64,000 nucleotides of DNA, from the NCBI GenBank assembly GCA_965263295.1, contig OZ253665.1:172933-236932 (forward strand), written 5' to 3'. A program made the position numbers and the translations under genes. Source of the DNA: Spirochaetia bacterium (GTDB lineage Bacteria > Spirochaetota > Spirochaetia > SP-2023). A model generated the notes under the pieces. It made no database searches, was not told where the DNA came from, and saw only the letters and a program-made list of their open reading frames with translations. Each line of letters starts with the position of its first letter. Position 1 is the stretch's first letter. Shown one piece after another: positions 3,509 to 54,279 of this stretch.

Positions 3509-4506
3509 TGTAGAGGAGAATTAAATTTATTGTGGCCATGTTGGCGAAAAGGATTGTCTGGCCGCAGCGCTTCTTCACGCAGTTTTTGGTATACCGGTTC
3601 AGCTTCTTGGTGCAGTTCTGCCAGCTCTTGCATGATTGCGTTGCAAACAGTGTCTTTAATCAACTTCTTGTCGGCGGTCTTGGGGTCGGTATCTAACTGG
3701 TGGCGAGCAATGACTCCATCGCGAAATTGACGCCCCCGGACGATGGCGCCGGCAGTTATTATGACCACATTCTCTTCCACTTTGTCGTTTTCCATATTCT
3801 CATCGGGTGAGGGGATTAGGCAGAAACCATTGAGTCCCACAAACAAGACATTTTGAAACACTTTCAGGTAGCTTTCGGCTTCGCGCACGGCGCGCTTGCT
3901 GTCTGGGTTCCATGGCCGGTAACGCGTGCCTGTAGGGAATACCAAGATTATACGGCCTTGGTATTTGCGCTTGGTCATTTCGCCGATGGCGGCGTGATTC
4001 ATCGGCGTGGAAACCTCGCGTACCCGGCGCCTCTCTTCTTCATCCTCAATTTGATCAATATGGCGGCTGGGGTAGATCGTTATAGTGGAATAGGCAGAAG
4101 ACAATACAGGGGTAGCCCGATTCCCTGAAGTCAGTTTATAAGCTTGAATTGGGAGCAAGGCATCGGCGGCTTCTTTGCCCAGGCCGGGGTGACGCTCGAA
4201 AAAACGTAGCAGGGCTGGGAAGTCAAAGTTGCTGTAGTGCTCCATCATAATCAGGCAGGACTCGCCGCGTTGGCAGCGCCGCCACATTTCGACAAATTGC
4301 TCTGCGTTTCGCAGGCCAGAGCCGGGCAGCATCAGGCGGTCAGCCATGTCGCAAATAATTTTGCGGTAAAAAGGAATGCCCGGACTATAGACATTGTCCG
4401 GTGTAATTTCTGGGATTTCAATATCTGGATTGGACATAATTTCATGGATGACTGGAGCAAAAAACTCCATAAATGTAATGCCTTCCCGTAGTTCCACAAA
4501 TTTCAT
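3505..4506 (-). CDS. Phospholipid/glycerol acyltransferase family protein (PlsC-like)
   Basis: H(X4)D acyltransferase motif in MMEHYSNFDFPAL, plus FPTGTR (the FPEGTR-like block). Its stop overlaps the dusA start by 4 nt. Confidence 0.55.
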   Translation of the reverse strand: MKFVELREGITFMEFFAPVIHEIMSNPDIEIPEITPDNVYSPGIPFYRKIICDMADRLMLPGSGLRNAEQFVEMWRRCQRGESCLIMMEHYSNFDFPALLRFFERHPGLGKEAADALLPIQAYKLTSGNRATPVLSSAYSTITIYPSRHIDQIEDEEERRRVREVSTPMNHAAIGEMTKRKYQGRIILVFPTGTRYRPWNPDSKRAVREAESYLKVFQNVLFVGLNGFCLIPSPDENMENDKVEENVVIITAGAIVRGRQFRDGVIARHQLDTDPKTADKKLIKDTVCNAIMQELAELHQEAEPVYQKLREEALRPDNPFRQHGHNKFNSPLQ

Positions 4507-21295: not shown

Positions 21296-21979
21296 CTAAA
21301 ATCCTTGTATCGTAACCTGGCGCAGATGGAATTTTTGTTCTAGGCTCAGGCGTTGGGCTAACAGATCCTCTAGTTGCAAGTAGTCTGCCCACAGGAGGAA
21401 GGATACACAGAGCAAAATACCAATTGGTTCACTGTGGATTCGGTATTTGCGCAGTATGCTTTGGAAAGGGATTTCTGGTTTAAAATCACGGTCATTCAAG
21501 CTGGGGGGGGCTTTGACGTCCCAGCCCCGCCCCCAGGCATCCACCAGGTCCAGTCCTTTGGGTCCTCGCCGTACCTGTATGCCCATTACGCCAAACTTGG
21601 CCAGCTCCAGGCCGACCATGGCTTCAATCACGCTGGAAAAGGTCATGTGTAGCCCATGGTCCGGATCTTTGGCCAATTCGCGAAGATCTGTCAGAGTTAC
21701 CTTATATTTGCGACTGATTCTAGGCAACAATTGGCCAGACCGGAATTCTTGTTTATATCGGTTATAGTCTAGGGTGCTAAAGTTTTTCAAGTCTTTTTTG
21801 CGGTCTGCTAGATCAAAAAGTCGCGTCTTTGCCATAATGCCACGGTCCCCTGTTTGTCTGCTTAGTTGCGACCTAAAACCAAAAAAAAACTGATGTTTGC
21901 CACGTTGTTTTCGGACGAGTAAGATTATTCTCCAGTCAAACTCAATAAGGAAATTCAAGTCGTGGTGCTCCATATTCAA
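21296..21979 (-). CDS. Hypothetical protein with a possible PD-(D/E)xK nuclease-like core
   Basis: …SVIEAMVGLELA…KGLDLVDAWGRGWDVKAP… fits an E…D…(D/E)xK spacing by eye. The ORF contains a C8 run (21493-21500) and a T9 run (21871-21879) on its coding strand. The true start could be MAKTRLF. Confidence 0.35.
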   Translation of the reverse strand: MNMEHHDLNFLIEFDWRIILLVRKQRGKHQFFFGFRSQLSRQTGDRGIMAKTRLFDLADRKKDLKNFSTLDYNRYKQEFRSGQLLPRISRKYKVTLTDLRELAKDPDHGLHMTFSSVIEAMVGLELAKFGVMGIQVRRGPKGLDLVDAWGRGWDVKAPPSLNDRDFKPEIPFQSILRKYRIHSEPIGILLCVSFLLWADYLQLEDLLAQRLSLEQKFHLRQVTIQGF

Positions 21980-22069
21980 TGGGATATATCTGATTAATCA
22001 GGCTTGCGGTGTGCCATGCGATTCAATGCAAAGAAAGCTTTGGCTCAAGCCTCTGCCATATTGTCTGGT

Positions 22070-30535: not shown

Positions 30536-30834
30536 AAAACTTTTAACGCAGTATCGGCGAGTACGAGCTTCCCGTATGTGGATTGAGAAGTAGGGTTTTC
30601 CGCGATCCGGCAATTAGAAATTCAGGTGGGGGGCTTGGCCAATCTGTAACAGAGGGTAAATTTCTGTTATATAAAATTATTTCAATTGCCAGTAGCTAGA
30701 TTGTGGGTTGAGCGGCTGGCAATGACTCTGCCACAAATGCCAATTTGATTTTGAGTGTGGCGTGCGGATTTACGGTTTCAGGAGCTGTAATGCTAGCGGG
30801 GATTGTTTGCTAATTATTGGGGAATTATTTGGAT

Positions 30835-32487
30835 ATGGGGAACAATAGAAAAGTCTATTTTATTTTTACCTCGCTCTTGGCTGCTTTGTCTATTGTTCAA
30901 TCTCCCAAAGGCCGTTTGTCTATTTTGAGGGCTCAGGAAAAAAAAACTCAAAGCGTAGATATGGCTCAATCGTTGGAGTTGCAGCTAAACTCCCGGTTCT
31001 GGCAGTTGCTAAGTCGGGAAGAATTGGAACCTCTGTCTGAGCTGAGGCGCGAGGGGAATAGTGTCCGGCGGGTTGTGTCGCTAGAGTTTTTGTACCCTGG
31101 ACTACAGACCGTCGACAGTGTCGATTCACGTAATCGTCAAGGTGAACTGTTGGAAGTGGAACTGCAGTCTCTGGAAGACAGTTACCTGGAACTGGCACGT
31201 GATGGCGCTTTAGTGTTAGTCCTGGCGGGGGAATTGCAGCGGGACCCTGAGCAGTTGAATGTGTATGGCGATCCCTGGCCTGAGGCCACATTGCGGCTAT
31301 GGCTGGAAGATGATTTTGAGCCGCCCTTTTTACTTGCTGAATTGGAAAATTATCAGCGTTTTAGCGCTGTGCAGATTGAAGTACAGGTTTTCAAAGATCT
31401 GCGGCAAACTGTTAGTCAAGTGCTTCACAGGAGTAAAGACCCTAGAAAAGTTTTGCCGGATATGATTCTCGCAGATGGGCAGACAATTGTAGACTTGCGC
31501 CATCTATTTGCGGACTTGACGACAAAGGAAAGAAGAGAAGAGGCTTCTTTGGCTTGTCTGGACTTGTTTTTCAGTAATAATCAGTTTTATGCTTCCCCTC
31601 TGGCCCTCGCGCGTTATAGCTTGATGTATAATCCTGAACTACTGGGTGCAGATTCCCTAGATGGGAATGGAAGCCAGGTCAAACTTTCCGAATTGTTTAG
31701 GCGCTTGGACTTTTTGAGTCAAGGGCGGGAGCCTGGCGCGTATAATCCATATTTTCTGGCTTTTGGTGATGATAGCATGCCTTTTGTCTTGCTTTTGTAT
31801 TCGTTCCTGAAGTCCGGTGATATTTCTGATTCGGCGCCTGACGCTGCCGGACTGCGCGCCGGGCTGCGATATCTGCGAAAACAGGGGCGCGAGGGCTTGC
31901 TGCGGCAGCTCGATTTTGCCGAAGAGCGCTTTGCCAAGGGTGATATTGCGGTTGTGATTGGACTTTCAAGCCACCTGCAGCATATTGTGAAGCTGACTAA
32001 TTCGCGACTAAAGGGCAAATCCCGTATCCAGGCTGCTGAGCTACCTTACAATGATCTGCAAGATAATGATACCCCCAGTTATGCGCGGGTTTGGAGTCTG
32101 GCTGTTTTGCGCAGTTCGTCGCAGCAGCCCCATGCCATGGGGCTGCGTCGCTATTTGTTGCGTGGTGCTGTCCAGAGCCAGTTTGACCTGGCATCTGGCA
32201 TATTGCCGACCAATACTTTGTATTATCCGTTTTACCAGCGCAGCGATTATTACGAACTACTACCTGAGGCGGAACTGCGCGACATTATGAATCCCGGGGA
32301 ACTTGGTGAGTTTGGGGCCAAACGTCGTCGCATGTATCGGGATATTGAAGGTTTGCAGCGCTGGTTCAACGACAGAATTGAGGTGCTACTGGATAGTGAA
32401 ATTAGCTTGTCGCAGCTTCTTGCAGATCTACGGCGGCAGTGGCAAAATGAAGTGTTACCTCGTCAAGAATTTGTATTTCTGCGCTGA
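30835..32487 (+). CDS. Secreted hypothetical protein; the C-terminal ~350 aa resemble a family-1 extracellular solute-binding fold
   Basis: Signal peptide MGNNRKVYFIFTSLLAALSIVQS. MalE-like blocks by eye (PDMILADGQTIVDL.., ASPLALARYSLMYNPELL, FAKGDIAVVIGLSSHL). No adjacent permease genes. The start could be TTG at 30817. Confidence 0.4.
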   Translation: MGNNRKVYFIFTSLLAALSIVQSPKGRLSILRAQEKKTQSVDMAQSLELQLNSRFWQLLSREELEPLSELRREGNSVRRVVSLEFLYPGLQTVDSVDSRNRQGELLEVELQSLEDSYLELARDGALVLVLAGELQRDPEQLNVYGDPWPEATLRLWLEDDFEPPFLLAELENYQRFSAVQIEVQVFKDLRQTVSQVLHRSKDPRKVLPDMILADGQTIVDLRHLFADLTTKERREEASLACLDLFFSNNQFYASPLALARYSLMYNPELLGADSLDGNGSQVKLSELFRRLDFLSQGREPGAYNPYFLAFGDDSMPFVLLLYSFLKSGDISDSAPDAAGLRAGLRYLRKQGREGLLRQLDFAEERFAKGDIAVVIGLSSHLQHIVKLTNSRLKGKSRIQAAELPYNDLQDNDTPSYARVWSLAVLRSSSQQPHAMGLRRYLLRGAVQSQFDLASGILPTNTLYYPFYQRSDYYELLPEAELRDIMNPGELGEFGAKRRRMYRDIEGLQRWFNDRIEVLLDSEISLSQLLADLRRQWQNEVLPRQEFVFLR

Positions 32488-32501: not shown

Positions 32502-34436
32502 GTGAAGAAATCAAAACAGAAAGATGATGTAGGGCTAAAACAAGCCCGAAGAGCAGGTAAAGCCGGGGCCCAGCAAATAAAAGAAGTACAAGAATTTGTT
32601 CCCTTTCGTTTCAAGGAGTTTGCGGGGATTAAGCCGCAACGGTATATCGCCACACTCTACGTTTTGATCGTGCTGCTCATGATTTACTTTCTGTTTCTGG
32701 ATAAGGGTTTGCGTGCGCCGCAAGTGCAGTTACAATTTTATAATCTCAGCGGTCCGGCCAGTCTATATGTCGATGGCCAGTTTTATCACAACTTGACGTT
32801 TTCGCCAGGTTATTTTGACTCGGTTAATAGCCATATATTATTGCCAGTGACCAATCAGGCCGCTGTTCGGGAACTGCGGGTTGTGCAGTCCGGTATGGAA
32901 GATTGGGTAGAACAGCCGACCTTGAGAGCGAATATTTGGAATAATCGTTGGCGACCTCGCCGCTACAATTTTGAATTGCAGTTGAAGCAAGCGCCTAGTT
33001 TTGCACCTGCACACCTCTGGCAAGAGGCTTGGCGGGCGTATTTGTATCGCGGTCTGGAAGGGCAGAAGAAAATGTCTTTTGATGCTTCGCACCCCTATCC
33101 CTGGGTTCTTTCCGAAGGCCTAAGGGCCGCTCTTTACAGCCGGACGGCCAACGATCAGTCCAGTTTTCCTCCCCACTGGTCGGCAGATTTACAGCGCGGC
33201 CTCGCGTCGACCACCAATGTTTATCAGTGGGGGGATTTGTTGAGTGCTAGTTGTTTGATCTATCAAATGGATATTAGTGCAGATCGACAAGTGACAGATT
33301 CCGCGACCAGGGTCGAGATATTGGGACCGCGTTCTTTGGCTTTGTTGGCTCGGAGCGCAGTAAAACGTTTGTGGCGTTTAGAACCGGGCCTGCAGAGCTT
33401 GCGTGAATCCTGGAAGCAAAGGACGGAAGAAATAAAGGAACAGGGTTTGCGCCTGAGCGAAAGGGATATAAAATTGCAGAGATTCTGGCAGCAAAACGAA
33501 GGAAATATATCAATAGAGTCTATAGAATATAGATTTAAAGATAGTTATGCCACAGACTTATTGGATCTAAGTGGTCTGCGTTTTGTTCGTTTGAATGGAC
33601 AAGGTTTGGCGGTACAACAGACGGAACTTAGCAATGCTGAATTTGCCCAATTTTGGTTTAGTGCGGCAGGCCAAAATTGGCGCGATATTGCCAGTGGCAG
33701 GCCGGAGAGCGAGGACGAGTTATCCCGTGGAGGTATCAGCGCTTTGGTGCTATACGCGCAAGACCGGGATAGTGGAACAGTTTGCCGGCCTTCGGGCTGG
33801 CAGGAATCTGATGGATTGGAAGATATCTTGCAAAATCCCTTGCTGCAGGGGCGACCTGTTCGTGGTATTAATTGGTCAGAAGCAGAGGCTTATGTACGAT
33901 GGAAGAATAAGCAGAATGACAATAATGCGGGATGGGAGTTTGCGTTGCCTAGCTTAGCTCAATTTCGCGCCATTGCTAAAGCACGATACCAGGCTGAAAG
34001 GGCAGGGCAAGAAACTTTTAGGAGAGCGGATACCGGTGTGAATTTTGTCGTTTCGCAAATGCCGCCGGCTTTTACAGAACAGACAGAGGATGCCTTGGGC
34101 CTGAAAGGGCTGGGCAATAGCTTGTGGGAATGGTTAAGAGTTGATTATTTGCCGCATCGCGTCGGTACCTCGGCAAATGGCAATAGTGAACTGGGCTACA
34201 AGGCTCTGGGCGGAGGCAGCTGGCTCAATGCCATATCCATTGATGATAGCACGCGTGACCTGTGGGCGGATGAGTTTTTGATCCAGGATAATGAATTGCC
34301 TGTAGCCAGTAGTTATGGCACCGTAGCCGGGCAGTTCTCGGCGATTTGTAGTCCATATACCGGCGTACGTTTGGTGGCTGTAAAACTTCCCGTGGATTTC
34401 CATGGATTGGGAAGGGAATTGGACGATGGCCGCTAA
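32502..34436 (+). CDS. Membrane-anchored protein with a C-terminal FGE-sulfatase (SUMF1/EgtB/PvdO-type) domain
   Basis: One TM helix (YIATLYVLIVLLMIYFLFL). A PEGA-like stretch (LSGPASLYVDGQFY). FGE-domain hallmarks RPVRGINWSEAEAYVRWKN, GNSLWEWL and ALGGGSW. Confidence 0.65.
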   Translation: MKKSKQKDDVGLKQARRAGKAGAQQIKEVQEFVPFRFKEFAGIKPQRYIATLYVLIVLLMIYFLFLDKGLRAPQVQLQFYNLSGPASLYVDGQFYHNLTFSPGYFDSVNSHILLPVTNQAAVRELRVVQSGMEDWVEQPTLRANIWNNRWRPRRYNFELQLKQAPSFAPAHLWQEAWRAYLYRGLEGQKKMSFDASHPYPWVLSEGLRAALYSRTANDQSSFPPHWSADLQRGLASTTNVYQWGDLLSASCLIYQMDISADRQVTDSATRVEILGPRSLALLARSAVKRLWRLEPGLQSLRESWKQRTEEIKEQGLRLSERDIKLQRFWQQNEGNISIESIEYRFKDSYATDLLDLSGLRFVRLNGQGLAVQQTELSNAEFAQFWFSAAGQNWRDIASGRPESEDELSRGGISALVLYAQDRDSGTVCRPSGWQESDGLEDILQNPLLQGRPVRGINWSEAEAYVRWKNKQNDNNAGWEFALPSLAQFRAIAKARYQAERAGQETFRRADTGVNFVVSQMPPAFTEQTEDALGLKGLGNSLWEWLRVDYLPHRVGTSANGNSELGYKALGGGSWLNAISIDDSTRDLWADEFLIQDNELPVASSYGTVAGQFSAICSPYTGVRLVAVKLPVDFHGLGRELDDGR

Positions 34437-34887
34437 AAAAAATCCCGGTATTATTGCTGATAACCGCAAGGCGCGCTTTGAATACAGTTTCGAAAGTGTC
34501 TTGGAGTGTGGTATAAAGCTTAAAGGTTCGGAAGTTAAGTCTTTACGAATAGGGCAAGTCGCTTTTAGGGATAGTTTTTGCAGCGTTGAAAACGGTGAGT
34601 TATGGTTACATAACCTGCACATTTCACCTTATAATTTCGCTTCGCATTTTAATCATCAGGCAGAACGCAAACGCAAACTGCTGGCCAATAAAAAGCAGAT
34701 TATTCAGTTACATCGTCGCGTTAAGGAAAAAGGGTTCTCGATAATCCCCACCAAAATCTATTTTAAAGATGCTTTGGTTAAGATTGAAGTCGCGCTGGCT
34801 AAGGGGAAAAAGCTTTATGATAAGCGCGAAATTATACGTAATCGAGATATACGGCGAGATGAAGGCCGCAAGCTGCGTATGAAATAA
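34426..34887 (+). CDS. smpB: SsrA-binding protein SmpB
   Basis: IADNRKARFEYSFESVLECGIKLKGSEVKSLR…LWLHNLHISPY…ERKRKLL…IPTKIYFKDALVKIEVALAKGKK. The ATG at 34426 overlaps the upstream stop by 11 nt. Confidence 0.9.
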   Translation: MAAKKNPGIIADNRKARFEYSFESVLECGIKLKGSEVKSLRIGQVAFRDSFCSVENGELWLHNLHISPYNFASHFNHQAERKRKLLANKKQIIQLHRRVKEKGFSIIPTKIYFKDALVKIEVALAKGKKLYDKREIIRNRDIRRDEGRKLRMK

Positions 34888-39858: not shown

Positions 39859-40107
39859 ATCGTTAAATTATCAATTTGTCACGAGGTGAAATTTTTGTCC
39901 GCAAGTTTTAATTTTTGGCTGTTCTAAATAAAAATAAAAATCCAAAGGAATGACATTTGACATCAGCGTTGTTGACGGTGGCTTTGCTCTCAATTGATAA
40001 GCTGCGGGCTCCTTTTAGCGATTTCAGTGGTCTTTTCGTATTGATTTTGCAGCCATAATGCTTTGTGCATTTTTAGCCGAGCTTAGTATTTTGGGATTAT
40101 AAAATAT

Positions 40108-40968
40108 ATGGCAGCTAAACGAGGCAAAGGCCAAAGTAAGATACATGGGCCACGGCGGCAGAGAAATCGTGATTTATCGACGCCTTCTACACAAGTGTAT
40201 GAACGTGAAACCACAAAATGTGAAATTGGGCATGAATCACCTGAGATATTGCAACAGAGTATACCTGTCGTTGAAAAGGTAGAGCGCGCGCGAGGAACTA
40301 CGTTGTACATGGTAGCCACTCCGCTAGGTAATTTGCGTGATATTACTCTGCGAGCTCTAGATATTCTGGCTTCGGTGGATGTCATTGTCTGTGAGAGCCT
40401 GAATCGAGCTAAGAAATTGTTGCGTGCGTACCGCATTCAGCCTGCACAGCTACTGGTTTGTCAGGCCGGGAATGAAGAAGCCAGTGCGACAGGTCTAATA
40501 AAGCTAATGCAGCGGGGGACTAGTATTGCCTATATCTGTGATGCCGGTACACCAGGGCTTAATGATCCCGGTATGAGACTGGTCGCCGCTGCTCGCTCTG
40601 AAGGTTTTGCCGTGGAGGCTTTACCTGGGCCCTCGGCTCTGACTATGATTGCGAGTTTGGCTTCGGCCTCTTGTAAGCCTTTGAGCTTTATTGGCTTTCT
40701 CAGTCCAAAAAGTGGACGGCGCCGACGCGAGCTAAAATTTTGGCTAGAGCAGGGCCACAGTTTTGTTTTCTATGAGTCTCCGTTTCGCATTATATCCACA
40801 TTGGAGGAATTAGCTCAACTAGCGCCCGAAAGGGAAATTGGCATGGGGCGCGAAATGACAAAAAAAAACGCACAGTTTTTATGGGGAACATCCGATTATA
40901 TATTATGCCAGTTGAATTCTATGTCAACTGTTTGTGGTGAGTTTACCTTGCTGGTTGCCGCGGGGTGA
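40108..40968 (+). CDS. rsmI: 16S rRNA (cytidine1402-2'-O)-methyltransferase RsmI
   Basis: TLYMVATPLGNLRDITLRALDILASVDVIVCE, DAGTPGLNDPG, FYESPFR. The track start adds a ~65-aa basic extension. An in-frame TTG at 40303, preceded by GAGGA, would give a canonical N-terminus. Confidence 0.85.
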   Translation: MAAKRGKGQSKIHGPRRQRNRDLSTPSTQVYERETTKCEIGHESPEILQQSIPVVEKVERARGTTLYMVATPLGNLRDITLRALDILASVDVIVCESLNRAKKLLRAYRIQPAQLLVCQAGNEEASATGLIKLMQRGTSIAYICDAGTPGLNDPGMRLVAAARSEGFAVEALPGPSALTMIASLASASCKPLSFIGFLSPKSGRRRRELKFWLEQGHSFVFYESPFRIISTLEELAQLAPEREIGMGREMTKKNAQFLWGTSDYILCQLNSMSTVCGEFTLLVAAG

Positions 40969-51200: not shown

Positions 51201-51821
51201 TCAAAATCGGTAGCGGCTTTCCAGGGCGCGGGCCACACTCAGGCGGTCGGCATACTCAATATCTCCGCCGACGGGCAAGCCGGAAGCGATTCGACTGACC
51301 GCAATGGCTTCGCCGTCAACCTGGACATTGGCCAATAGTTGCCGGATGTAAATTGCGGTGGCATCGCCTTCGAGAGTGGGGTTGGTAGCCAGAATAATTT
51401 CGCGGAAGCCCTGTTGCTGGATTCGCCGCAGCAGGCGTGGGAGACCTAGCTGCTCTGGTCCGACGCCGTCAATCGGAGAAAGCGTGCCGTGTAGCACCTG
51501 GTAATAGCCGGTAAAAGTTTGCGCAGCTTCGATAATGTAGAGATCTTGAATATTTTCGACGATGCAAAGCTTTTCCGGGTCGCGTTGGCTGTCGGTGCAA
51601 ATATTACAAAGCTTTTCCGTATCTGGGCTAGTCACTTGCACATAGTTGCCGCAGTTTGGGCAGTGCTGGATTTGGCGGTGTAAGTCCTGCAAGCTTTTGC
51701 CCAACTGTCTGGCCAGAGCCGGCTCGGAGTTGAGGATATGAAAGACGATGCGGGCCGCACTCTTGCGGCCGATGCCGGGCAAGCTGGAAAATTGGCGGAT
51801 CAACGGGTCAAGCGGATTCAC
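51201..51821 (-). CDS. recR: Recombination protein RecR
   Basis: LIRQFSSLPGIGRKSAARIVFHIL, Zn finger CPNCGNY…CNIC, Toprim region EIILATNPTLEGDATA. Confidence 0.95.
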   Translation of the reverse strand: MNPLDPLIRQFSSLPGIGRKSAARIVFHILNSEPALARQLGKSLQDLHRQIQHCPNCGNYVQVTSPDTEKLCNICTDSQRDPEKLCIVENIQDLYIIEAAQTFTGYYQVLHGTLSPIDGVGPEQLGLPRLLRRIQQQGFREIILATNPTLEGDATAIYIRQLLANVQVDGEAIAVSRIASGLPVGGDIEYADRLSVARALESRYRF

Positions 51822-51893: not shown

Positions 51894-52190
51894 CTACTGA
51901 TTGCCAAACATGCCCATCAGCGGATTGAACTGGGACTGGATCTTTTGCTTGATCTTGTTCTGGGCATCCGTGATTGCCGCGGCCACGAGTTGTTCCAACA
52001 TCTCAACGTCGCGTGGGTCCACGGCGACGGGGTCTATCTTCACGCCCTTGATCTCCATGGCGCCGTTAAACGTCACCTTGACGAGTTCGCCGCCAGCGGC
52101 GCCGGTGGCACTAAGGGTTTGCAATTGGTTCTGTAATTCGTTGATATTACTTTTTAAGTTGGCCTGCTGCATTAGCTCCAAAGGATTCAT
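51894..52190 (-). CDS. ybaB: Nucleoid-associated protein YbaB/EbfC
   Basis: GGELVKVTFNGAMEIKGVKIDPVAVDPRDVEMLEQLVAAAITDAQNKIKQ. Conserved dnaX-ybaB-recR order. Confidence 0.9.
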   Translation of the reverse strand: MNPLELMQQANLKSNINELQNQLQTLSATGAAGGELVKVTFNGAMEIKGVKIDPVAVDPRDVEMLEQLVAAAITDAQNKIKQKIQSQFNPLMGMFGNQ

Positions 52191-52264: not shown

Positions 52265-53076
52265 TTATTCTGTCTTTCTATCATCGGCGCTGTAATGGAC
52301 TTCTTTGACTTGGGCCAACAAGACTTTTTGCAGTTTTTGGATGTCGGCTGGCAGCTGAGAATAATCCTCAAGTTGCTGTTCGCGAATTATGCGCTGTGCC
52401 ATGGCCGGATGATTTTGCTTGCCTCGTGCTTGCATTTGACCGGTTTGATTGAGCGCAAGCATTTGAGTCTCTCGCTCGCCGGGGGTCGCCCGTGTCTGTC
52501 CCGCGGGGGCGGGGGGACTTGCCTCCGTCTCTGGGCGCCGATTGGGGGCAAAGGTGTTGGCGTTTGATTGGCCTTGTGGCTGCGGGCCTGGGGCTTTGTT
52601 TTGTCGCTCTGGCCCAAGAATGGACGCCTGGTTTGAGAAACTGAGTTTGATAATCGTGGCCAGTTCGGTTCCGATCAAGACTCTTTGGAAAAATCGTAGC
52701 AGCAGGCTATTGCTATTTTTGAGTTGTTCTTGCACCTGCGGGCTCCGCACTGTAATGCTGAGGTTTTGATTTTCGCTTTGCCAAGTCCAGCAGGCTTCCG
52801 TCAGAAACTTGGCCAACTGGGGTTGCTTGTTTTGCAAGGGCGTTATTACGGCCAGACGTAGTGCCTCGTCAACGTTAGAATTGGACGCCAAAGAAGAGGC
52901 GTGCCGAGCGGACTGCGGTTTTGGGGAATCTGTAGTAGAGACGGAGACAGCTTTTTCGGGCTCTGATCTGGAATTAAGGCGGGCTGTCAGAACCGGGGGG
53001 GATTGAAGAGTAAGCTGTGATTGTGCTGTTAATGAATTAGTTTCAGAGGCAGTCAGGCACTCAGAGTTTTTTTTTT
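52265..53076 (-). CDS. dnaX: DnaX tau-specific C-terminal region, open in the -1 frame relative to dnaX
   Basis: Hand translation of the -1 frame from the A10 run is stop-free and joins the 208-aa track ORF (52265..52891). The sequence …EALRLAVITPLQNKQPQLAKFLTEACWTWQSENQNLSITV…LLLRFFQRVLG.. looks like the DnaX C-terminal domain. Confidence 0.6.
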
Positions 53077-54279
53077 GATGGCGGCCACCTGGCTGCCATA
53101 AGAGGTATTGTAGTCCGGCAGCCCCTGCTGTAGTTGTGATGTCAATTCCTCTAAGCGTTGCAATTGGCGCGAACTTGAACTGTGGTAACTGAGCTGAGAC
53201 AACTCAAAGAGCAACAGCTCAAACTCAAAACTTTCGTTGATGGAATAACGAAGGTTGCGGTAGAGAATAAAGCAGCGTTCAAGTATATGGCATAGCTGTT
53301 CACGGTTCCAGCTCTGCAACGCTTTGTCGCTGTAATGACTGGCTGGGTAGGGCAGGAGCAGTAGCAATTGCTGTTCGCTCAAATCACTTTGCAGGAGTAA
53401 GAGGGCGCGCAGGTAATCGCAGAGGTCGACTAAGAGCTGCTCTAACGAAGTGCCGCTGTGTATGATATCCCCGTAAACTTGTAGGGCGGCCTGCAGGTTT
53501 AAGTCAATCAAATAGTCGCAGAGCTGGCCTAAGTTGTCGATGGCCGTCAGGCCCATTTTTTGCTGGATCAATTCCAGACTCAGGGGCTCGCCGGAGCAAA
53601 AAGAAATAACTTGGTCGAAAAGGGTGTAGGCGTCGCGCATGGAGCCTTTAGCCTCACGGGCCACCCACCTCAATGCTTCGTCGCGATATTCCAAGCCGAT
53701 TTCGAGACATGTAGCGACCAGGTTCTGCTGAATCAGCTCCAGCGGTATTAGGTGAAAATTGTAGTGCTGGCAGCGGCTACGCACTGTCAGTGGCACTTTG
53801 TGGATTTCCGTGGTAGCAAAAATAAAAACGATATATTCGGGAGGCTCTTCAATGGTCTTCAGTAAAGCGTTGAAGGCACTGTTGGAGAGCATGTGTACTT
53901 CATCAATGATGAAGATTTTGTAACGGCTACTGCTGGGTGCATACAAGACCTCATCTTTAATCTCGCGGATGTCGTCGACTCCAGTGTGGGAGGCTCCGTC
54001 AATTTCAATGACGTCCATGGCTTTGCCGCTGAGTATCTCCTTGCAGTTCGTGCACTGCCCGCACGGCGTGCTGGTCACGCCCGTCTCACAGTTTAGAGCA
54101 CGGGCCAAGATACGCGCGGTGGAAGTTTTCCCTACCCCGCGTGGCCCCGAAAATAAATATGCATGGGCGATTCGGCCCCCGTTGATGGCGTTGTGCAAAG
54201 TTTGTTGAACAAAAGTCTGCCCACAAAGCTGCTCTAGATTCTGTGGCCGGCGACGGGTCGCGGTTACTTGGTATTCCAT
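53053..54279 (-). CDS. dnaX: DNA polymerase III subunit gamma/tau DnaX, 0-frame product (408 aa, gamma-length)
   Basis: RRRPQNLEQLCGQTFVQQTL…AHAYLFSGPRGVGKTSTARILARALNCE…CGQCTNC…IFIIDEVHMLS…SRCQ. The ORF ends 12 nt after an A10 run. Confidence 0.9.
   Translation of the reverse strand: MEYQVTATRRRPQNLEQLCGQTFVQQTLHNAINGGRIAHAYLFSGPRGVGKTSTARILARALNCETGVTSTPCGQCTNCKEILSGKAMDVIEIDGASHTGVDDIREIKDEVLYAPSSSRYKIFIIDEVHMLSNSAFNALLKTIEEPPEYIVFIFATTEIHKVPLTVRSRCQHYNFHLIPLELIQQNLVATCLEIGLEYRDEALRWVAREAKGSMRDAYTLFDQVISFCSGEPLSLELIQQKMGLTAIDNLGQLCDYLIDLNLQAALQVYGDIIHSGTSLEQLLVDLCDYLRALLLLQSDLSEQQLLLLLPYPASHYSDKALQSWNREQLCHILERCFILYRNLRYSINESFEFELLLFELSQLSYHSSSSRQLQRLEELTSQLQQGLPDYNTSYGSQVAAIKKKTLSA
53067..53076 (-). 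other. A10 homopolymer (T10 on the + strand): candidate slippery or transcriptional-slippage site in dnaX
   Basis: Counted directly. The 0 frame reads ATC AAA AAA AAA ACT CTG AGT GCC TGA. Confidence 0.6.

Follow-up and report, generated by a model that had tools for sequence, protein, structure and literature searches.

In Escherichia coli, dnaX is decoded with a -1 programmed ribosomal frameshift at the sequence A_AAA_AAG, which is accompanied by a 5′ Shine-Dalgarno-like element and a 3′ stem-loop. For Thermus thermophilus dnaX, transcriptional slippage on an A9 run was shown experimentally (Larsen et al. 2000, PNAS 97:1683, as summarised in PMC1088944), and in Shigella mxiE slippage makes the longer product (PMC1088944). 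In Blochmannia vafer and B. floridanus, poly(A) frameshifts in dnaX are rescued by transcriptional slippage (PMC3017870). The closest described class are dnaX genes divided over two open reading frames (ORFs), in which tau needs recoding. The study of Antonov et al. (2013, NAR 41:6514, PMC3711429) gives 17 such genes from 12 genera, nine of them with an A10 run aligned to the Thermus site. The A10 genera that it names include Chlorobium, Prosthecochloris, Pelodictyon, Flavobacterium, Cytophaga, Capnocytophaga and Coraliomargarita, with Chlorobium tepidum, C. luteolum, Flavobacterium johnsoniae, Cytophaga hutchinsonii and Coraliomargarita akajimensis as examples; the genes were found in Chlorobi, Bacteroidetes and Verrucomicrobia, and transcriptional realignment was proposed. 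Such reversed two-ORF dnaX genes are also discussed in the review of Atkins et al. 2016 (PMC5009743). Here we describe a dnaX gene with an A10 run between its gamma and tau parts in a Spirochaetia bacterium. It lies on a stretch of 64,000 nucleotides (nt) of assembly GCA_965263295.1, contig OZ253665.1, hereafter the window; coordinates are positions of the whole window.

The gene is located on the minus strand with its start at 54279. By standard decoding, the 0-frame ORF (53053..54279) yields a gamma-length DnaX of 408 amino acids (aa), which comprises the AAA+ module, the lid and probably domain III and ends with ...AAIKKKTLSA*. On the coding strand the junction reads ...GCC ATC AAA AAA AAA ACT CTG AGT GCC TGA. 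It contains a run of exactly ten A (53067..53076, T10 on the plus strand) in codon phase 0 (AAA AAA AAA A), the proposed site of RNA-polymerase slippage and/or a -1 ribosomal shift. The 0-frame TGA (53053..53055), 12 nt beyond the run, terminates gamma four codons past it. The +1 frame is closed directly after the run by CTC TGA (53061..53063), which would give a second gamma form (...KKKL*) from mRNAs that have lost one A or gained two. The tau-specific region (52265..53068; N SECL...KTE*), 267 aa plus stop, resides in the -1 frame. Translated from 53074, this frame reads KKNSECLTASETNSLTAQSQLTLQSPPVLTARLNSRSEPEKAVSVSTTDSPKPQSARHASSLASNSNVDEALRLAV... / KKNSECLTASETN... and is free of stops down to 52265, thereby including a 208-aa ORF (52265..52891); from stop to stop it is open across 52265..53203. 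Thus, the genomic frame alone encodes only the 408-aa gamma-length subunit, and the 267 aa of tau are in the -1 frame. They can be joined to 0-frame residue 404 only via one additional nucleotide, the loss of two nucleotides or a -1 ribosomal shift. The predicted fusion comprises 671 aa (A11 mRNA or -1 ribosomal shift) or 670 aa (A8 mRNA), with IKKKNSECLTASETN as the predicted gamma/tau junction peptide. A preliminary description of the locus had reported the 408-aa ORF with the same terminal residues and stop distance, a hand-translated -1 frame merging with the 208-aa ORF and a tau-length product of about 670 aa. Coordinates and translations bear out all of this, the hand translation KKNSECLTASETNSLTAQSQLTLQSPPVLTARLNSRSEPEKAVSVSTTDSPKPQSARHASSLASNSNVDEALRLAV being identical to ours.

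Database searches identified the gene as dnaX with an AAA+ clamp-loader module and lid at the N-terminus of its product. The 408-aa protein matched the Pfam families PF13177 (1.4e-46), PF00004 (3.7e-13) and PF22608 (8.8e-11), and reached 419.8 bits with the NCBIfam model TIGR02397 (dnaX_nterm; cut-off 250). Of the best full-length NCBIfam model, NF005173, only profile positions 1-383 of 568 were matched. Domain III, the oligomerisation collar (PF12169), scored 22.4 bits, slightly under the gathering score of 24.4; the precomputed Pfam listing of relatives has this domain. A search with the N-terminal 408 aa led to a spirochaete clade including Candidatus Haliotispira prima (82% identity), as well as to two close relatives possessing a single-ORF DnaX, P0006 (702 aa) and P0007 (696 aa).

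The -1 frame was compared with these two relatives. Its product was colinear in BLASTP with residues 396-689 of P0006 (E 1e-28), beginning at a common KKNS, and with residues 483-693 of P0007 (E 1e-31). Judged by this comparison, the -1 frame is the tau-specific region of DnaX, because it is colinear with the C-terminal third of the protein in single-ORF relatives; the preliminary description had come to the same assignment. When the -1 product was searched as a free-standing protein against 5.8 billion sequences, no more than two homologues emerged, of which one belongs to the same species and the other is 38% identical; searches of Pfam and NCBIfam with it gave nothing significant. An alignment of the tau part from eight species revealed two conserved blocks separated by low-complexity linkers. 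The first block has the pattern PQLAxFLxxACWTW...NSLLLRFFQ...KLSF, while the second is the C-terminal DYSQLPxDLQILQKVLLAQVKEV. An AlphaFold2 model, built from a shallow alignment of four sequences and good for residues 60-150 only, predicts a folded tau domain at about these residues of the -1 product (52616..52888, minus strand) with the order alpha-alpha-beta-beta-alpha-alpha-beta and a predicted local distance difference test score of about 90. The extreme C-terminus (52286..52378, minus strand; DYSQLPxDxQxLQKVLLAQVKEV), which is conserved in the alignment, is predicted to form a helix (240-260). The best Foldseek matches to the domain model were the DUF721 domain of DciA and domain I of DnaA, with template modelling scores of about 0.63-0.68 of the target and weak E values of about 0.02-0.09; tau domain V of E. 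coli was absent from the top 50 matches, all of which were weak (E 0.02 or higher). Tau domain V probably belongs to the same fold class as DnaA domain I and the DciA-like domain. A profile of the tau C-termini of other spirochaetes, searched against PDB sequences, yielded DnaA domain I only (E 0.025), and the tau C-terminus of the clade matched those of other spirochaetes weakly in a profile-profile comparison (hhalign probability 22%).

We read the junction DNA in 12 loci, those of the clade being obtained via exact-protein look-ups. In the window and in a second sample and assembly of the same species (L002), the sequence is ATC A10 CTCTGAGTGCCTGA. The tau frame is -1 in both, as it is in the clade members L001 (ACC A10 CTTTGATCGCCTGA), L083 (GAC A10 CTCTGATTGCCTAG; the complete 3.25-Mb genome of Candidatus Haliotispira prima, CP123443.1), L086 (A10) and L087 (G A9 CTCTGAATCCCTAA). 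L088 (A10) has tau in the +1 frame. In L084 (GAC A8 CTCTAAGTGCTTAG) and L085 (GCG A10 TTCTGA..., with the run in phase 1), tau is in frame 0. The more distant spirochaetes L089 (A12), L090 (Oceanispirochaeta sp., A11) and L091 (A12) again have tau in the -1 frame. Their 0-frame stop follows directly after the run, and the -1 frame terminates with the tau tail typical of spirochaetes, ...VELVRSIFRGTII. Hence, 8-12 A are kept at the junction in every species of this set. In the Candidatus Haliotispira clade beyond the window species, all seven species keep A8-A10, five being split and two having tau in frame. The run is the sole invariant element in the eight-species junction alignment, the linker flanks being otherwise unalignable. 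An alignment of related dnaX genes, suggested in the preliminary description as a check, thus disclosed the run in seven other clade species and the split also in the distant L089-L091.

The stops next to the run persist as well. The position of the 0-frame stop is matched in L001 (TGA), L083 (TAG), L084 (TAG, in the corresponding frame) and L087 (TAA), and the +1-frame stop is conserved as CTT TGA (L001), CTC TGA (L083 and L087), CTC TAA (L084) and TTC TGA (L085). Off-frame stops therefore remain at the same positions through swaps between TGA, TAG and TAA, and one change from TGA to TAA results in a non-conservative Glu/Asp-to-Lys replacement in the tau frame. In the genes of the window, the background probability of meeting a stop in both off-frames, within two and five codons, amounts to 0.033 per position.

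Two members of the clade deviate from this pattern. L088 (1501-1510, Logan SRR26726388) alone among the split loci has tau in the +1 frame and needs A9 or A12, its 0 frame continuing for 18 codons beyond the run; either a genuine change of polarity or a wrong run length in this short contig may be the reason. In P0009 (490 aa, from a 5.5 kb Logan contig) the 0 frame extends about 45 codons past the K run (...AKKKTTVPVACWSRQKSPNIH...) without an early stop, in which the other members differ.

These comparisons make it extremely unlikely that the gene is truly split or decaying, i.e., that gamma is accompanied by an independent C-terminal protein with its own internal start or that the C-terminal part is a pseudogene remnant. 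Gene callers do annotate separate downstream ORFs (156, 326 and 269 aa), but the called starts vary among species and lie at non-homologous positions, and in all split loci the -1 frame can be followed upstream into the run without a stop. The residues following the run (NSECL, NSDCL, NSKCL, NSESL) are conserved, their translation being certain in the fused L084, and a frame of 160-346 codons has been maintained in eight species. Furthermore, as established for the clamp loader, tau has to be a covalent link between the clamp-loader body and the part binding polymerase and helicase.

A wider view was obtained from the best 120 DnaX homologues. Twenty-seven of them have at most 450 aa, about 24 of which end in a K run; of the 93 long forms, 32 show KKK at the junction. 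P0012 of Spirochaeta cellobiosiphila (392 aa) ends in QKKK. Records with a split form come from ENA long-read assemblies, Logan contigs, a JGI metagenome and NCBI genomes. P0038 (L091, 2679-2690) and P0126 fall into one 90%-identity cluster and differ in frame state: P0038 stops after 397 aa with VKKKN*, and P0126 (at least 473 aa) continues through EEKKKKLKQPETPLSQAFD... into tau. P0023 and P0124, likewise members of one 90%-identity cluster, end with PKKKK* and PKKKSKTS*, respectively. Such differences inside 90% clusters indicate that the run length varies between close strains or assemblies. If slippage populates each of the three frames, a change in run length could switch the genomic frame from one relative to the next.

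The variation raises the question of whether the split is an artefact, the true run being A11 or A8 in one ordinary dnaX ORF and the homopolymer having been miscalled in the assembly. Homopolymer indels are the commonest consensus error of long reads, the contigs bear names that point to metagenomes assembled from long reads at 4-22x coverage, tau is in frame in two clade members, and the frame state varies inside 90%-identity clusters (P0038 vs P0126). However, A10 is present in both of two independent assemblies of the window species, six of the eight clade species are split, including the one with a complete NCBI genome, and Logan, JGI and NCBI records contain split forms as well. Both off-frame stops have been kept with compensating stop-to-stop changes, no second gene broken at a homopolymer exists in the 64-kb window, and the same A10 two-ORF layout is reported for complete prokaryotic genomes in the 2013 study (PMC3711429). 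As far as can be judged from these comparisons, we therefore regard an assembly error in the window as very unlikely. The preliminary description had proposed recoding at the run, through one A added by RNA-polymerase slippage or through a -1 ribosomal shift, and had named a homopolymer error of the assembly as the alternative. Recoding gains support, while the error is disfavoured by the presence of the run with its three-frame layout in seven other species of the clade and in the second assembly of the same species.

The A run by itself is statistically unremarkable, its significance resulting from position and conservation. A9 matches occur five times in the 64-kb window, against 3.9 expected. 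The dnaX A10 is the sole A or T run of at least ten nucleotides in the window, and the sole true ORF break associated with a homopolymer. Lysine codons in the window are 59% AAA and 41% AAG, so that KKK alone would not predict a pure-A run. An A8 run at 34435-34442, which was considered as a second homopolymer-linked break, was rejected, as it lies in an ordinary overlap of a 644-aa gene with a gene that is SmpB-like by eye.

On every feature that could be tested in the sequence, the window dnaX fits the two-ORF class of Antonov et al. As in that class, whose runs number about 7-10 A, there is an A10 run at the gamma/tau junction, the 0-frame stop of gamma follows soon after, the tau part is in the -1 frame, and the genome annotation is silent on recoding; frameshift position and motif are here conserved among orthologues. 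The locus differs in that it belongs to Spirochaetota, a phylum from which no species is present among the nine A10 species of Figure S3 in the part of that study available to us (PMC3711429), in that its stop resides four codons past the run, and in that close relatives show both polarities and one +1 case. The layout has thus been known since 2013 (PMC3711429) and no new principle is involved; new is its occurrence in Spirochaetota, which extends the two-ORF dnaX class to another phylum. The statement of the preliminary description that the polarity is inverted and recoding obligatory for tau is supported by the comparison with relatives; a precedent for this polarity exists in the two-ORF A10 dnaX genes of PMC3711429.

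With Thermus dnaX the locus shares a homopolymeric A run at the junction and close stops in both non-tau frames, so that each mRNA length class would give either tau or gamma and ribosomal stimulators would be unnecessary. The difference is only one of polarity. In Thermus the DNA frame encodes tau and slippage leads to gamma, whereas in the window the DNA frame encodes gamma and slippage would be obligatory for tau; the relatives L084 and L085 have the Thermus polarity. E. coli dnaX is the same gene with the junction likewise after domain III (putative in the window), two products per gene and a Lys-codon slippery sequence in the same phase. Unlike it, the window site lacks AAG, no conserved 5′ or 3′ stimulator was found at it, and the long product is the shifted one. 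Blochmannia dnaX and Shigella mxiE also need RNA-polymerase slippage at a homopolymer for the full-length product. The Blochmannia frameshift, however, lies inside the tau-only region and was interpreted as tolerated erosion (PMC3017870), whereas the window site is situated exactly at the gamma/tau boundary, is conserved in the clade and has stops in both other frames.

From these data we infer, with a probability of about 0.7, that the window harbors a functional dnaX gene with a programmed recoding site at which slippage is mainly performed by RNA polymerase. RNA polymerase would slip on the T10 template and thereby generate mRNAs with varying numbers of A. Messengers with A11 or A8 (also A14) would bring tau in frame, giving a protein of ~671 aa, those with A10 and A13 would yield gamma ending with KKKTLSA, and those with A9 and A12 gamma ending with KKKL. 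A single gene would in this way supply gamma and tau as in T. thermophilus, but with gamma in the genomic frame. A -1 ribosomal shift on A_AAA_AAA may add to the amount of tau, and both processes could sum. RNA-polymerase slippage is favored as the main route because the runs (9-12 A) exceed a shifty heptamer, because the stop in the third frame is conserved, because one locus has +1 polarity, and because the frame state flips between close relatives (P0038 vs P0126).

Several observations weigh against this interpretation. Tau lies in the -1 frame at nine of the ten split loci, which a -1 ribosomal frameshift predicts likewise, and the L089 site is A_AAA_AAG followed at once by a stop, a classical arrangement for ribosomal shifting. 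The off-frame stops overlap codons of the tau frame (NS[EDK]CL), and the protein could explain part of their conservation. Homopolymer lengths are possibly wrong in several of the assemblies, which are metagenomes built from long reads or at low coverage (4-22x by contig name). Finally, both the mRNA heterogeneity and the tau-length product are predictions made from the sequence.

Part of these points would be accommodated if tau was mainly produced by -1 programmed ribosomal frameshifting on a uniform A10 mRNA, the tandem tRNA-Lys re-pairing in the -1 frame. The heptamer A_AAA_AAA lies in the correct phase for such an event, nine of the ten split loci require exactly -1, L089 offers A_AAA_AAG with the 0-frame stop immediately after it, and reversed dnaX genes are considered candidates for ribosomal frameshifting by Atkins et al. 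(PMC5009743). We nevertheless judge this route unlikely as the principal source of tau. Downstream regions folded no better than shuffled sequences (z +1.05 in the window and -0.8 or higher in all seven loci), in agreement with the preliminary description, which had noticed no convincing stem-loop. An Rfam scan of the whole window at the gathering threshold gave no match, a DnaX frameshift element included, and the eight-species junction alignment contains no conserved Shine-Dalgarno-like motif upstream of the run. A_AAA_AAG is missing in the window, where A_AAA_AAA is followed by ACT, and in E. coli A_AAA_AAA is far less shift-prone than A_AAA_AAG (PMC5009743). Moreover, runs of 9-12 A are longer than a heptamer needs, the conserved +1-frame stop would be purposeless if only the frames 0 and -1 were used, and L088 requires a +1 change. 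A hairpin upstream of the run in the window (GGGGCUGCC...GGCAGCC, then GGUGG..CCAUC abutting the run) was dismissed, as its z value against shuffles was -0.12 and it is not conserved.

If the site is a programmed recoding site, tau, the essential organiser of the bacterial replisome, would be made here only through a programmed decoding error that standard annotation misses. Recognising the site would correct the annotation of the clade and of many spirochaete genomes in which a gamma-length DnaX ends in a K run. Related genomes with both polarities provide material for testing transcriptional slippage against ribosomal frameshifting. A more far-reaching proposal, to which we give somewhat less than even odds, is that the poly-A slip site at the junction is ancestral in Spirochaetia, its high efficiency making the choice of genomic frame nearly neutral. 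Polarity would then flip often, even between DnaX proteins of >90% identity (P0038 vs P0126), about one fifth of the sampled lineages would be wholly reliant on RNA-polymerase slippage for an essential replication protein, and the excess of -1 loci would reflect a bias of the spirochaete RNA polymerase towards insertion of one A. Should this be true, Spirochaetia would offer a natural series in which to measure how subunit stoichiometry is set by slippage spectra.

The annotation of Candidatus Haliotispira prima may serve as an illustration. Its 411-aa product carries the NCBI name 'DNA polymerase III subunit gamma/tau', and the tau part (L083, 4347-5156 in CP123443.1) figures in the gene calls consulted as a separate gene of 269 aa with no Pfam domain on record. 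The recoding is thus unannotated in the reference genome of the genus.

Among the matches listed in a contig scan with a DnaX alignment, mostly from distant bacteria, the spirochaetes were L003-L008, L010 and L015, and the Haliotispira clade was not represented. All of these spirochaetes have a single-ORF dnaX, and no junction run of at least nine A was present except in Leptospira. The single-ORF dnaX of L015, a Leptospira biflexa metagenome-assembled genome (DYLV01000047.1), contains two A9 runs (3673-3681 and 3768-3776) near the gamma/tau junction. The first one (GTA AAA AAA AAG) includes an in-phase A_AAA_AAG as in E. coli, the -1 frame being closed nine codons later, while at the second one (GAA AAA AAA AGT AAA) a -1 shift reaches TAA immediately. 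By their sequence context, both are candidate gamma-producing sites.

Downstream of dnaX, the window contains ybaB (51894..52190, minus strand) and recR (51201..51821, minus strand); in L002 the equivalent genes revealed the Pfam domain YbaB_DNA_bd and RecR domains, respectively. The order dnaX-ybaB-recR is the usual, conserved dnaX cluster. Three further A9 runs are located in long stop-to-stop ORFs of the window, none of which is broken. They reside near the 5′ end of a minus-strand ORF at 21296-21997 (run at 21881-21889), in the N-terminal region of the ORF 30817-32487 (30938-30946; protein ...AQEKKTQS...) and near the 3′ end of the ORF 40087-40968 (40860-40868). If RNA polymerase slips on A9-A10, these three genes would also yield some frameshifted product.

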